Positions 2,593-7,008 of a DNA stretch of 7,008 nt are shown here, in pieces. The notes beneath the pieces are model-generated. The model saw nothing but the letters and a program-made list of their open reading frames with translations. It did not search any database and was not told where the DNA came from. The stretch lies in IMG/VR virus record IMGVR_UViG_2693429728_000013; one strand, 5' to 3'. How positions within the stretch are numbered: the first letter of the stretch is position 1; every line of letters begins with the position of its first letter. Source of the stretch: a virus. Lineage: Duplodnaviria > Heunggongvirae > Uroviricota > Caudoviricetes. The position numbers and the translations under genes were made by a program.

Positions 2593-3060
2593 ATGAACCG
2601 CGTACTGTGCGTGGTCATCATTGCCCTGCTGGTGGCCTGTGGTGCGCTTAGTCTGGGGCTGAATCATTACCGTGATAACGCCATAACCTACAAAGAGCAG
2701 CGCGATAAAAAAGTCAGTGAGCTGGAGCAGGCAAATGCAACCATTACTGATATGCAGCAGCGCCAGCGTGATGTTGCTGCACTTGATGCCAGATACTCGA
2801 GGGAATTAGCCGATGCGAGAGCTGAAAATGAAACTCTTCGCGCTGACGTTGCCGCTGGTCGTAAGCGCCTGCGGATCAACGCCACCTGTCCAGGCTCCGT
2901 GCGTGAAGCCCCCACCACCTCCGGCGTGGATAATGCAACCGGCCCCCAACTGGCAGACACCGTTACACGGGATTATTTCACCCTCAGAGAGCGGCTGATG
3001 ACGATGCACAAGCAACTGGAAGGGGCACAGGACTATATCCGCACTCAGTGCCTGAAATAA
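2593..3060 (+). CDS. Rz: Rz i-spanin (inner-membrane spanin subunit)
   Basis: 155-aa ORF with N-terminal TM helix and NHYRDNAITYK...DVAALDA...DYFTLRERL motifs closely matching lambda Rz as recalled; position downstream of R. Confidence 0.9.
   Translation: MNRVLCVVIIALLVACGALSLGLNHYRDNAITYKEQRDKKVSELEQANATITDMQQRQRDVAALDARYSRELADARAENETLRADVAAGRKRLRINATCPGSVREAPTTSGVDNATGPQLADTVTRDYFTLRERLMTMHKQLEGAQDYIRTQCLK
2813..2998 (+). CDS. Rz1: Rz1 o-spanin (outer-membrane lipoprotein spanin subunit), embedded in the +1 frame of Rz
   Basis: 61-aa ORF entirely inside Rz: MRELKMKLFALTLPLVVSACGS (lipobox VSAC) followed by a Pro-rich segment VKPPPPPAWIMQPAPNWQTP, as in lambda Rz1. Confidence 0.85.
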   Translation: MRELKMKLFALTLPLVVSACGSTPPVQAPCVKPPPPPAWIMQPAPNWQTPLHGIISPSESG

Positions 3061-3684
3061 GTTTTGTTGATGCGCCGTATCGTCGCTGTATTCCCTCATT
3101 AACAGAGACCGCAGCCCGACAGGGAGACTCCTCTGCGCGAGTGTGCGGGGATAATCAAAAACGATACACACTGGGGTTTACCGCGTTAACGGAGCGCGGC
3201 GTTGTCCCCTCATAGTCGCCTGTCCGGTGCGATGGTGGAAGAAGCCGGATGTTTATCACTATTAATTGATGACACAGAAATGGATTCATTGAATTTCAGC
3301 ACGTTTTTGTATTCGTGTTATTGAACATCTGTTTATTTTACTTTTAACATATTGATAATAAAAAGAGCTGTAAATCTTTAGATGAGTCGATTTTGTCCGG
3401 GGAAGTTCAAATGGATTTTATGCTGACGGTTTCTGGTGTGGTTATCCTGTCCATTGCTTATACTGCAGATAAATATGGCTGCCATTTGTTATCACGTATT
3501 GGCGCTTATTGTTCGTTGATGCTGATTTTCTCGTCGCTTTTTTTTTGAGTAAGTTATATTAATTATAACAAATAATTTTCTGTGTTATTTTTTCAGGCTA
3601 TCCCGTCAGAGGGGAAGCCTGTACTGCCGGGGAGCGAATGGAAAACTGATGTGTCCGGTAACTGCGTGTTCTGTGAACACCATG

Positions 3685-3870
3685 TTACTTAATTATGTAA
3701 TTCATACCCGAACTCTCTGTTGACAGCCTTCTTCTGCAGGCTTCAATAACCCACGCTGAAAAGTTTCCTGAACCTTTCAGATCAAGAGCGATGTTAATTT
3801 GTTCAATCATCTGGTTTGGAAATCGGATGTTGCGGGTTGTTGTTCTGCGGGTTCTGTTCTTTGATGACAT
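3685..3870 (-). CDS. Small ribbon-helix-helix-like protein (YlcI/YnfO, DUF3950-like), 61 aa
   Basis: Only minus-strand ORF in the spacer: MSSKNRTRRTTTRNIRFPNQMIEQINIALDLKGSGNFSAWVIEACRRRL... Basic N-terminus then a beta-strand/helix pattern typical of Arc/MetJ/CopG folds. Resembles the small DLP12 protein YlcI, which I recall lying just upstream of the Nu1 homologue; family assignment is from memory. Confidence 0.5.
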   Translation of the reverse strand: MSSKNRTRRTTTRNIRFPNQMIEQINIALDLKGSGNFSAWVIEACRRRLSTESSGMNYIIK

Positions 3871-4029
3871 AATGTTTCCCCATATTCAGTGTTGCTGATT
3901 TGTATTATCTGAAGTTGCTTTTACGTTAATTTGACGCAGATCAATTAATACGATACCTGCGTCATAATTGATTATTTGACGTGGTTTGATGGCGTAGATG
4001 CACGTTGTGACATGTAGATGATAATTATT

Positions 4030-4258
4030 ATCATTTTGCGGGTCCTTTCCGGCGATCCGACAGGTTACGGGGCGGCGACCTCGCGGGTTTTCGCTATTTA
4101 TGAAAATTTTCCGGTTTAAGGCGTTTCCGTTCTTCTTCGCCGTAACCTAATGTTTTTATTTAAAACACCCCCTGAAAAGAAAGGAAACGACAGGTGCTGA
4201 AAACGGGCTTTTTGGCCTCTGTCGTTTCCTTTCTCTGTTTTTGTCCGTGGAATGAACA
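4030..4258. other. cos: cos site: cosQ (about 4040-4068), cosN 12-nt cohesive end GGGCGGCGACCT (4070-4081), cosB with terminase/IHF binding sites (4082 to about 4250)
   Basis: GGGCGGCGACCT present exactly at 4070-4081, followed by CGCGGGTTTTCGCTATTTATGAAAATTTTCCGGTTTAAGG..., which matches the lambda left end as recalled. Upstream GGTCCTTTCCGG..GATCCGACAGGTTACG matches the lambda right end. Confidence 0.85.
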
Positions 4259-4804
4259 ATGGAAGTCAACAAAAAGCAGCTGGCTGACATTTTCGGTGCG
4301 AGTATCCGTACCATTCAGAACTGGCAGGAACAGGGAATGCCCGTTCTGCGAGGCGGTGGCAAGGGTAATGAGGTGCTTTATGACTCTGCCGCCGTCATAA
4401 AATGGTATGCCGAAAGGGATGCTGAAATTGAGAACGAAAAGCTGCGCCGGGAAGTTGAAGAACTGCGGCAGGCCAGCGAGACAGATCTCCAGCCAGGGAC
4501 TATTGAGTACGAACGCCATCGACTTACGCGTGCGCAGGCCGACGCACAGGAGCTGAAAAATGCCAGAGACTCCGCTGAAGTGGTGGAAACCGCATTCTGT
4601 ACTTTCGTGCTGTCGCGGATCGCAGGTGAAATTGCCAGTATTCTCGACGGGATCCCCCTGTCGGTGCAGCGGCGTTTTCCGGAACTGGAAAACCGACATG
4701 TTGATTTCCTGAAACGGGATATCATCAAAGCCATGAACAAAGCAGCCGCGCTGGATGAACTGATACCGGGGTTGCTGAGTGAATATATCGAACAGTCAGG
4801 TTAA
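4259..4804 (+). CDS. Nu1: Terminase small subunit Nu1
   Basis: 181-aa ORF MEVNKKQLADIFGASIRTIQNWQEQGMPVLRGGGKGNEVLYDSAAVIKWYAERDAEIENEKL..., essentially identical to lambda gpNu1 as recalled (N-terminal winged-HTH DNA-binding region). Immediately downstream of cosB. Confidence 0.95.
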   Translation: MEVNKKQLADIFGASIRTIQNWQEQGMPVLRGGGKGNEVLYDSAAVIKWYAERDAEIENEKLRREVEELRQASETDLQPGTIEYERHRLTRAQADAQELKNARDSAEVVETAFCTFVLSRIAGEIASILDGIPLSVQRRFPELENRHVDFLKRDIIKAMNKAAALDELIPGLLSEYIEQSG

Positions 4805-5560
4805 CAGGCTGCGGCATTTTGTCCGCGCCGGGCTTCGCTCACTGTTCAGGCCGGAGCCACAGACCGCCGTTGAATGGGCGGATGCCAATTACTATCTCCC
4901 GAAAGAATCCGCATACCAGGAAGGGCGCTGGGAAACACTGCCCTTTCAGCGGGCCATCATGAATGCGATGGGCAGCGACTACATCCGTGAGGTGAATGTG
5001 GTGAAGTCTGCCCGTGTCGGTTATTCCAAAATGCTGCTGGGTGTTTATGCCTACTTTATAGAGCATAAGCAGCGCAACACCCTTCTCTGGTTGCCGACGG
5101 ATGGTGATGCCGAGAACTTTATGAAAACCCACGTTGAGCCGACCATCCGCGATATTCCGTCGCTGCTGGCGCTGGCTCCGTGGTATGGCAAAAAGCACCG
5201 GGATAACACGCTCACTATGAAGCGTTTTTCCAATGGTCGTGGCTTCTGGTGCCTGGGCGGTAAAGCGGCAAAAAACTACCGTGAAAAGTCGGTGGATGTG
5301 GCGGGTTATGATGAACTTGCTGCCTTTGATGAGGATATTGAACAGGAAGGCTCTCCGACGTTCCTGGGTGACAAGCGTATTGAAGGCTCGGTCTGGCCAA
5401 AGTCCATCCGTGGCTCCACGCCCAAAGTGAGAGGCACCTGCCAGATTGAGCGTGCAGCCAGTGAATCCCCGCATTTTATGCGTTTTCATGTTGCCTGTCC
5501 GCACTGCGGGGAGGAGCAGTATCTTAAATTTGGCGATAAAGAGACGTCGTTTGGCCTCAA
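4580..5560. repeat. Tandem direct repeat, copy 1 (981 bp; Nu1 3' part plus A 5' part)
   Basis: Sequence from GTGGTGGAAACCGCATTCTG... through ...GTCGTTTGGCCTCAA recurs at an offset of exactly 981 bp. About six single-base differences between copies (e.g. CATCCGTGAG vs CGTCCGCGAG, CGTGTCGG vs CGTGTTGG, TACTTTATA vs TACTTCATA, CCTTCTCTGG vs CCTTATCTGG). Confidence 0.9.
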
Positions 5561-5693
5561 GTGGTGGAAACCGCATTCTGTACTTTCGTGCTGTCGCGGA
5601 TCGCAGGTGAAATTGCCAGTATTCTCGACGGGATCCCCCTGTCGGTGCAGCGGCGTTTTCCGGAACTGGAAAACCGACATGTTGATTTCCTGA
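4779..5693 (+). pseudogene. A: Terminase large subunit A, first copy, interrupted by the duplication junction at about 5560/5561
   Basis: GTG start overlapping the Nu1 3' end as in lambda. First ~264 codons read as gpA (MNISNSQVNRLRHF...KSARVGYSK...GDKETSFGLKW), then the frame runs into the duplicated Nu1 sequence out of frame (WKPHSVLSCCRG...) and stops at 5693. Confidence 0.7.
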
Positions 5694-5785
5694 AACGGGA
5701 TATCATCAAAGCCATGAACAAAGCAGCCGCGCTGGATGAACTGATACCGGGGTTGCTGAGTGAATATATCGAACAGTCAGGTTAA
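5561..5785 (+). pseudogene. Duplicated C-terminal fragment of Nu1 (about 74 codons, lacks the N-terminal DNA-binding part)
   Basis: Identical to Nu1 residues VETAFCTFVLSRIAGEIASILDG...EYIEQSG; same reading frame as Nu1 (offset 981 = 3 x 327); no native start or RBS. Confidence 0.7.
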
Positions 5786-6541
5786 CAGGCTGCGGCATTT
5801 TGTCCGCGCCGGGCTTCGCTCACTGTTCAGGCCGGAGCCACAGACCGCCGTTGAATGGGCGGATGCCAATTACTATCTCCCGAAAGAATCCGCATACCAG
5901 GAAGGGCGCTGGGAAACACTGCCCTTTCAGCGGGCCATCATGAATGCGATGGGCAGTGACTACGTCCGCGAGGTGAATGTGGTGAAGTCTGCCCGTGTTG
6001 GTTATTCCAAAATGCTGCTGGGTGTTTATGCCTACTTCATAGAGCATAAGCAGCGCAACACCCTTATCTGGTTGCCGACGGATGGTGATGCCGAGAACTT
6101 TATGAAAACCCACGTTGAGCCGACCATCCGCGATATTCCGTCGCTGCTGGCGCTGGCTCCGTGGTATGGCAAAAAGCACCGGGATAACACGCTCACTATG
6201 AAGCGTTTTTCCAATGGTCGTGGCTTCTGGTGCCTGGGCGGTAAAGCGGCAAAAAACTACCGTGAAAAGTCGGTGGATGTGGCGGGTTATGATGAACTTG
6301 CTGCCTTTGATGAGGATATTGAACAGGAAGGCTCTCCGACGTTCCTGGGTGACAAGCGTATTGAAGGCTCGGTCTGGCCAAAGTCCATCCGTGGCTCCAC
6401 GCCCAAAGTGAGAGGCACCTGCCAGATTGAGCGTGCAGCCAGTGAATCCCCGCATTTTATGCGTTTTCATGTTGCCTGTCCGCACTGCGGGGAGGAGCAG
6501 TATCTTAAATTTGGCGATAAAGAGACGTCGTTTGGCCTCAA
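5561..6541. repeat. Tandem direct repeat, copy 2 (981 bp)
   Basis: Same as copy 1 at offset +981. Junction has microhomology: CTGAAGTGG in Nu1 versus CTCAAATGG in A. Confidence 0.9.
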
Positions 6542-7008
6542 ATGGACGCCGGATGATCCCTCCAGCGTGTTTTATCTCTGCGAACATAATGCCTGCGTCA
6601 TCCGCCAGCAGGAACTGGACTTCACTGATGCCCGTTATATCTGCGAAAAGACCGGGATCTGGACCCGTGATGGCATTCTCTGGTTTTCGTCATCCGGTGA
6701 AGAGATTGAGCCACCTGACAGTGTGACCTTTCACATCTGGACAGCGTACAGCCCGTTCACCACCTGGGTGCAGATTGTCAAAGACTGGATGAAAACGAAA
6801 GGGGATACGGGAAAACGTAAAACCTTCGTAAACACCACGCTCGGTGAGACGTGGGAGGCGAAAATTGGCGAACGTCCGGATGCTGAAGTGATGGCAGAGC
6901 GGAAAGAGCATTATTCAGCGCCCGTTCCTGACCGTGTGGCTTACCTGACCGCCGGTATCGACTCCCAGCTGGACCGCTACGAAATGCGCGTATGGGGATG
7001 GGGGCCGG
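5760..7008 (+). CDS. A: Terminase large subunit A, second copy, apparently intact at the 5' end; 3' end beyond window
   Basis: GTG start at 5760 in the same context as 4779. Frame stays open to the window end and reads as gpA through ...GLKWTPDDPSSVFYLCEHNACVIRQQELDFTDARYICEKTGIWTRDGILWFSSSGEEIEPP...AGIDSQLDRYEMRVWGWGP, matching lambda gpA as recalled. Confidence 0.9.
   Translation, partial: MNISNSQVNRLRHFVRAGLRSLFRPEPQTAVEWADANYYLPKESAYQEGRWETLPFQRAIMNAMGSDYVREVNVVKSARVGYSKMLLGVYAYFIEHKQRNTLIWLPTDGDAENFMKTHVEPTIRDIPSLLALAPWYGKKHRDNTLTMKRFSNGRGFWCLGGKAAKNYREKSVDVAGYDELAAFDEDIEQEGSPTFLGDKRIEGSVWPKSIRGSTPKVRGTCQIERAASESPHFMRFHVACPHCGEEQYLKFGDKETSFGLKWTPDDPSSVFYLCEHNACVIRQQELDFTDARYICEKTGIWTRDGILWFSSSGEEIEPPDSVTFHIWTAYSPFTTWVQIVKDWMKTKGDTGKRKTFVNTTLGETWEAKIGERPDAEVMAERKEHYSAPVPDRVAYLTAGIDSQLDRYEMRVWGWGP

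Follow-up and report, generated by a model that had tools for sequence, protein, structure and literature searches.

The YlcI and YnfO proteins of Escherichia coli K-12, encoded in the DLP12 and Qin prophages, respectively, belong to the same family (DUF3950). Their genes lie between the lysis genes and a Nu1 homolog (nohD/nohA), on the opposite strand, and K-12 ylcI has been listed as overlapped by convergent transcription with ybcW (PMC12288877). The literature was searched for experiments on the function of DUF3950, YlcI or YnfO and none was found; the names occur in gene lists and mutation tables only. Phage lambda carries a 64-aa homolog in the same place and orientation, between lambdap79 (ybcW-like; a different, plus-strand ORF) and cos. 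The older DE3 annotation, in which the lambda gene numbering is followed, does not include this lambda ORF; some recent records call it.

The DNA analysed here, a stretch of 7,008 nt (the window), comes from a lambda-like E. coli prophage and covers its late region. The gene order is holin, a 325-aa ORF, lysozyme (1761-2294), Rz/Rz1 (2593-3060), a spacer, a minus-strand ORF, cosN, Nu1 (4259-4804) and terminase A. The 12-base cohesive-end sequence of cosN, GGGCGGCGACCT, is located at 4070-4081 on the plus strand and is given as context, being outside the feature under study. The whole of cos is about 200 bp long, in the order cosQ-cosN-cosB, with the 120-bp cosB on the other side of cosN (PMC4669245).

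The nearest complete genomes are those of Shiga-toxin-type E. coli (99% identity). They are without a 981-bp tandem duplication (4571-5567 and 5552-6548) of the Nu1 3' part and the terminase A 5' part, and their match spans 6030 bp vs. 7008 bp in the window. At the duplication junction is a short shared AAGTGGTG; the copies are distinguished by 6 internal positions (4976-5085), and the first terminase A copy is truncated and fused (ORF 4779-5693). Between Rz and the minus-strand ORF is a small hydrophobic ORF (3393-3548, plus strand, 51 aa), followed by a T-run, which may be another small independent gene; its RefSeq version is a hypothetical protein of 45 aa. Just left of cos, a promoter-like GTGACA-16-TATCAT (10/12 matches; 4007-4034, plus strand) is directed at cosQ/cosN.

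The minus-strand gene and its family

The ORF at 3685-3870 on the minus strand begins with ATG and encodes 61 aa. A preliminary description of the locus, made from the sequence alone, had placed it in the spacer immediately before cos as the only minus-strand gene of the window, and this was confirmed: the gene is 200 bp from cosN, and of the 11 features that RefSeq annotates in a 99%-identical relative no other CDS is on the minus strand (product, 'YlcI/YnfO family protein', WP_001329960.1). The remaining long ORFs on this strand of the window run antisense to Rz and to terminase A. The comparison with DUF3950 and YlcI/YnfO profiles proposed in that description gave scores over the curated cut-offs for both Pfam DUF3950 (PF13132; 67.5 bits, cut-off 25, E 9e-19) and NCBIfam YlcI_YnfO_N (NF041551; 35.2 bits, cut-off 30), and phrog_949 was matched at E = 9e-32. 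The family core IRF(P)...I...NFSAWV..AC is present, as are all of the columns invariant across 40 diverse members (I15, R16, F17, I25, F37, W40, V41, C45). Since the YlcI/YnfO family is without demonstrated function, the match names the gene and leaves it unexplained.

Within this uncharacterised family the ORF is a real prophage gene, conserved and very common, whose placement and orientation are likewise established. The region was matched in 4174/5426 complete E. coli genomes, at up to 12 places per genome. Clustering at 50% gave 106 family representatives at E up to 0.001, and the named members seen were all from Enterobacterales. The gene is under purifying selection, judging from its codon differences from lambda (10 synonymous, 3 non-synonymous). 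The first ~52 residues of the protein are ~88-92% identical to YlcI and YnfO. Homology with lambda (92% DNA identity) runs from 3736 through cos, the 3' side of the gene is common to phages with HNH-TerS packaging genes, and the last ~10-25 residues vary between alleles (SSGMNYIIK in the window protein; longer tails in YlcI and lambda). A mosaic junction was therefore placed inside the 3' end of the gene, in the part encoding the variable C-terminal tail (3685-3735, minus strand).

In many Stx phages and other prophages the encoded protein is 93% identical and has the same residues in the N-terminal arm and the strand. These phages have in common with the window only 3736-3879; upstream, an HNH endonuclease gene is divergent from the gene and is followed by one for a Terminase_2 small subunit. 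Lambda-type and HNH-TerS-type phages alike have a lone gene of this kind, on the opposite strand, directly in front of the packaging genes.

Members at 50-60% identity in Rouxiella (L124 3001-3180) and Tatumella (L131, L134, L150) appear to lie outside recognisable prophages, as chromosomal orphans; the Rouxiella gene directly follows a cytochrome bd-like gene pair. Lambda right-end DNA was also encountered as short contigs (L089-L123) in assemblies labelled Kitasatospora, Cohnella, Pedobacter, Enterococcus and others, and in many error-laden 3.5-kb 'ena' contigs. The stray contigs look like control or spike-in lambda DNA, and inflate the apparent diversity of the family via frameshifted proteins.

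The preliminary description had also read the protein as an Arc/MetJ-like ribbon-helix-helix protein; the predicted topology and the best structural neighbours agreed with this reading, while statistical significance was not reached. A basic N-terminal arm is followed by a predicted strand RNIRFP (13-18) and helices at 19-32 and 37-52. The AlphaFold2 model, built from a 40-sequence alignment (mean pLDDT 71), was extended at 13-18 and helical at 19-32 and 37-52; no strand was assigned by DSSP because the partner subunit is missing from the monomer model. The top Foldseek matches in the PDB were the ribbon-helix-helix proteins NikR, Arc (1par), MazE, HicB and ParD2 (query TM-scores 0.55-0.62), and a plant TCP DNA-binding domain was also among the matches; all E-values were at least 1.2, so the similarity is not significant. 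Foldseek against viral models gave nothing significant, a few of the named matches being CopG-type.

The register found by hhalign placed NIRFP on NLRWP of Arc and on NikR's first strand, with probabilities of 1-5% (Arc, 4.6%); against typed Arc, NikR-N and CopG sequences the register was correct and the scores were not significant. In the Arc-operator structure, Asn11 and Arg13 of the NLRWP motif contact bases. Weak matches were obtained to HicB-like families (phrog_497, E = 0.012; PF15919 in 2/40 family members) and to the RHH_1 profile (E = 0.24), and a PDB sequence search with the protein alone and with the 40-member profile gave no relevant match. From the predicted topology and the structural neighbours, a ribbon-helix-helix fold is likely, not statistically proven.

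The inverted repeat and the conserved island

The 8-bp inverted repeat with a 17-nt spacer that had been reported at 3932-3964 is perfect. The arm near the ATG, TGACGCAG, occupies 3932-3939 and the arm far from the ATG, CTGCGTCA, occupies 3957-3964 (both as read on the plus strand), which puts the repeat 62-94 nt before the ATG and 106-138 bp to the left of cosN. The ATG-proximal arm overlaps TTGACG at 3931-3936. A second perfect 8-bp dyad, ATCAATTA (3940-3947) and TAATTGAT (3965-3972), is interleaved with the first and has the same 17-nt spacer, the two together forming a conserved 41-bp island (3932-3972). The island is 97.6% identical to lambda, with one base different, vs. 87-88% for the flanks (61 and 67 nt). 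Each 8-bp arm is non-palindromic by itself and the arms are 25 bp apart, a separation that is unusual for ribbon-helix-helix operators. A third exact copy of TGACGCAG is found within gene A (6593-6600).

Perfect 8-bp inverted repeats with a spacer of up to 30 nt were counted in dinucleotide shuffles of the 200 bp from the ATG to cosN. One such repeat arose by chance in 6% of shuffles, so that a single repeat is, alone, borderline. The 200-bp region contains three such repeats (P = 0.0035), and two interleaved perfect dyads within 120 bp were reached in 0.75% of shuffles.

The perfect repeat was present in 24/83 of the lambda-type loci that were fetched; the remaining form, CTGCATCA in gene orientation (7/8 matching), was present in 59/83, which include lambda (carrying TGATGCAG) and K-12 ylcI. 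The difference is at C3935, which is T in lambda and most relatives, and a compensating change is absent from the 7/8 allele. Because the identical 61-aa protein accompanies both alleles, the repeat and the protein do not covary; the covariation that the preliminary description had put forward as a check was thus absent, in a comparison that had no power, since the lambda-type loci comprise two alleles one base apart. Neither 8-mer occurs upstream of the 93%-identical protein of the HNH-TerS-type phages, and the repeat is therefore not a constant partner of the protein. At one locus (L005, ~1330-1500) an insertion-sequence-like segment stands in place of everything past the conserved island, with its junction immediately outside AATCAATTATGACGCAGG, and the gene is thereby cut off from cos.

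Phage phi80 has sequence in common with the window only over 4019-4069, annotated as cosQ/R4. The repeat lies outside cos, and a role as a cos subsite was ruled out by its position and by the extent of the phi80 homology. Inspection by eye gave no match to the IHF or FNR consensus, nor to the YdaT site TTGATT-N6-AATCAA (PMC9986795).

On the minus strand, a Shine-Dalgarno-like GGGG is situated 8-11 nt before the ATG (3878-3881), and a -10-like hexamer GATAAT (3904-3909), without a good -35 partner, is a candidate weak promoter; a promoter scan of this strand returned no sigma-70-like promoter. A hairpin over the stop codon, followed by a weak U-run (3658-3688, minus strand; fold z = -2.8), is a possible terminator of the gene.

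As RNA, the region 3920-3980 folds on the plus strand with -15.8 kcal/mol (z = -4.6; 0/200 shuffles as stable) and more weakly on the minus strand (z = -3.0), where the fold in a 120-nt context was not exceptional (z = -1.3). The change of C3935 to T leaves a G.U pair on the plus strand and A.C on the minus strand, which is a single datum. Scanning the complete window against Rfam 15, with E up to 1, gave no match over 3900-3990, the only matches being sub-threshold chance matches elsewhere.

The inverted repeat is a weak candidate binding site of the protein. Specific binding of the protein to the island at 3932-3972 is possible, and we lean towards doubting it.

Relatives in phage satellites

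Members of DUF3950 at 36-45% identity were found in phage satellites (PICI and capsid-forming PICI) of Klebsiella, Serratia, Proteus, Xenorhabdus and E. coli, which carry genes for an integrase, AlpA and a primase, and in many cases capsid genes as well. The satellite gene stands alone on the opposite strand, divergent from the primase operon, and upstream of it are element-specific 12-bp boxes, GTG-N6-CAC, mostly direct and 23 bp apart. In capsid-forming PICI-type satellites (L126-L168; e.g. L137 2890-2940, L156 2915-2945, L132 2890-2930) the boxes, two strong and one weaker per element, lie over the divergent promoter that separates the DUF3950 gene from the primase operon. Covariation was seen between boxes 1 and 2, which are 10.7/12 identical within an element and 7.6/12 between elements. 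Box similarity tracks the DUF3950 N-terminus (rho 0.64) more closely than AlpA (rho 0.27), a relation that physical linkage could explain. The boxes abut an invariant GTCAA at about -64, the complement of which, TTGAC, can be read as the -35 element in the leftward promoter of the primase operon, TTGACG-16-TATAxG.

Like the satellites, the window has a lone opposite-strand gene and a similar ribosome-binding region, with a motif resembling the GGGG at the same position in the satellite homologs. It also has the GTCAA, at -65 inside the ATG-proximal repeat arm; this motif is invariant in 22/22 aligned sequences, and the repeat arms of the window align with satellite boxes 1 and 2. Unlike the satellites, the window has neither the TTGACG-16-TATAxG promoter nor GTG-N6-CAC boxes, and it is without ~9 nt of the satellite promoter spacer.

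In one E. coli satellite, the gene of a 60-aa member has upstream of it two perfect 12-bp palindromes, TGGTACGTACCA, which are 33 bp apart with a TATAAT between them. A second paralog in the same satellite is fused to a small-terminase helix-turn-helix domain and has its own GTGTTTAACAC repeats. Four such fusions, joining DUF3950 to the N-terminal helix-turn-helix of the Terminase_2 small subunit in ~120-129 aa, were collected (P0193, P0222, P0226, P0246). That of P0246 (L084 4001-4363) is in a PICI-like satellite, adjoins integrase and AlpA-like genes, and is preceded by GTGTTTAACAC repeats. By analogy, the fusions could be Rpp-like packaging-redirection proteins for helpers of the HNH-TerS type.

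In some satellites the whole DUF3950 gene is covered, on the antisense strand, by a long ORF of 324-331 aa that is called as a gene (L164 4634-5608, L139 2625-3599, L158 2451-3446; all minus strand). It is probably spurious, because it is broken into short pieces in the close relatives L165, L166 and L168. The PICI literature found describes induction through the activator AlpA and mentions no repressor. Taken as an analogy, the satellite boxes and palindromes support a general model of a repressor with nearby repeated operators; the operator of the window is not thereby identified.

Proposed function and comparison with known systems

The product of the ORF would be a small dimeric ribbon-helix-helix DNA-binding protein, made from a small separate transcription unit that is on the other strand from the late operon, where the lysis and DNA-packaging modules meet. 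Because this unit opposes the late operon, we propose that the protein is made mainly with late transcription off, i.e. in the lysogen. A two-stranded ribbon formed by the N-I-R-F strands of two subunits would read short repeated DNA boxes near the gene's own start, and the bound protein would repress transcription there; the best local candidate site would be the 41-bp island (3932-3972), the reported repeat included. Here we infer the fold, from the motif and the structure prediction, and likewise DNA binding and repression; most inferential of all is which site serves as the operator. That the gene encodes a small ribbon-helix-helix regulator, in an antisense unit of its own at the lysis/packaging boundary, which binds short repeats near its start, we hold to be slightly better than an even proposition. 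The autoregulated regulator binding the repeat that was envisaged in the preliminary description is supported in part: the gene, its family and the predicted topology agree with it, while repeat and protein did not covary and the scan gave no promoter on the minus strand.

The repeat may have no function, as a chance dyad or the remnant of an ancestral divergent promoter in a region conserved otherwise, with the protein acting on host or other prophage targets. The 6% frequency of a single repeat in shuffles, the minority status of the perfect allele, its absence from HNH-type phages and the further exact TGACGCAG within gene A are all consistent with this, as is the alignment of TTGACG with the -35 of the satellite primase promoter, in whose spacer the window is ~9 nt short. 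The rarity of two interleaved perfect dyads in shuffles (0.75%) and the distinctly better conservation of the 41-bp island than of its flanks argue against it, and we consider it unlikely, though deserving of some weight. The repeat could also act at the RNA level, as a hairpin of the plus-strand late transcript (e.g. for processing or stability) that has nothing to do with the minus-strand protein. The plus-strand fold is the more stable of the two (z = -4.6 vs. -3.0) and the C3935-to-T variant keeps its pairing, as G.U, on that strand only. With a single variable position there is, however, no compensatory change to test; no Rfam family was matched, the minus-strand fold is unexceptional in the 120-nt context (z = -1.3), and no known role for such a lambda site was found in the literature. 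An RNA element of this kind has a slim chance of being the explanation.

Placement bears on a different reading, in which the protein is an accessory DNA-packaging factor that binds the island left of cos, or an equivalent site, and helps or modulates the small terminase subunit, not transcription. The gene is always directly before the packaging module, in two unrelated types (Nu1/A with cos; HNH with Terminase_2), natural fusions of DUF3950 to the small-terminase N-terminal helix-turn-helix recur, and the conserved island is 98-138 bp left of cosN. Yet every packaging gene is expressed from the late operon, to which the gene runs antisense; cos function has been mapped to ~200 bp (PMC4669245), and the phi80 homology covers only 4019-4069. 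In addition, HNH-type phages with the same protein have no island, and capsid-forming satellites place the gene beside the primase operon, not the terminase genes. We judge a packaging role to be quite improbable. The weak HicB-like matches (phrog_497, PF15919), the presence of MazE, HicB and ParD2 among the structural neighbours and the variable C-terminal tail would fit an orphan antitoxin-like ribbon-helix-helix protein, the remnant of a type II toxin-antitoxin module. No co-oriented partner ORF was present up- or downstream in the window or in RefSeq relatives, nor in the satellite loci; in the window no minus-strand ORF of at least 40 aa was found between 3290 and 3684 or directly upstream of the gene. 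PADLOC returned no defence-system match. We regard this reading as extremely improbable, and it was ruled out because there is no partner gene.

A wider form of the regulator proposal, drawn by analogy, is that YlcI/YnfO proteins are widespread, overlooked ribbon-helix-helix repressors, each encoded by a lone antisense gene at the entrance of a packaging or replication operon in lambdoid phages and PICI-type satellites. The sites bound would be the GTG-N6-CAC boxes over the primase promoter in satellites and, in lambda-type phages, the 41-bp island by cos, the TerS fusions adding a second, Rpp-like redirection of packaging. In this full extent the proposal is speculative, and we think it rather unlikely to hold.

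For the window itself the significance is modest, being that of a known, already annotated family member with a candidate operator. The main value lies in an unstudied conserved gene of lambda and most E. coli, and in satellite relatives with a clear, testable operator-like architecture. The gene is present in lambda, the best-studied phage, where classic annotations omit it, and the region is matched in some three-quarters of the complete E. coli genomes, often as multiple copies, with no functional paper found. A demonstration that the protein is a DNA-binding repressor, with its targets identified, would fill a gap in the lambda gene map. It could also reveal how satellites keep the replication and packaging operon silent; on the wider proposal, their DUF3950 proteins would be a repressor layer for Gram-negative PICIs.

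Among known systems, the Rpp (redirecting phage packaging) proteins of E. coli PICIs resemble the DUF3950 proteins in coming from mobile elements linked to cos packaging, and the satellite DUF3950-small-terminase fusions recall the Rpp mimicry of that DNA-binding domain. The Rpp fold is a winged helix-turn-helix like that of lambda TerS, not a ribbon-helix-helix (PMC6739421). The window protein, unlike Rpp, is without a terminase-like domain, and a relationship between the two was rejected on account of the winged helix-turn-helix fold of Rpp. The satellite DUF3950 proteins share the domain itself, and their repeated boxes are at the positions of the window's repeat arms.

Arc and Mnt of phage P22 (1par) are of the same size class as the window protein, with the strand-helix-helix order that is predicted for it and an N-[IL]-R-[FW]-P motif at the DNA-reading strand, and Arc is likewise a small phage-encoded protein, a repressor that binds its operator. 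They differ in that no significant sequence or profile similarity to Arc was detected (hhalign probability 4.6%). Arc has a compact operator of 21 bp in which the half-sites are close together, whereas the arms of the candidate site in the window are 25 bp apart and its binding is putative. By this analogy, the proposed mode of action is most like that of Arc- or Mnt-type phage repressors, with membership of the superfamily not statistically established.
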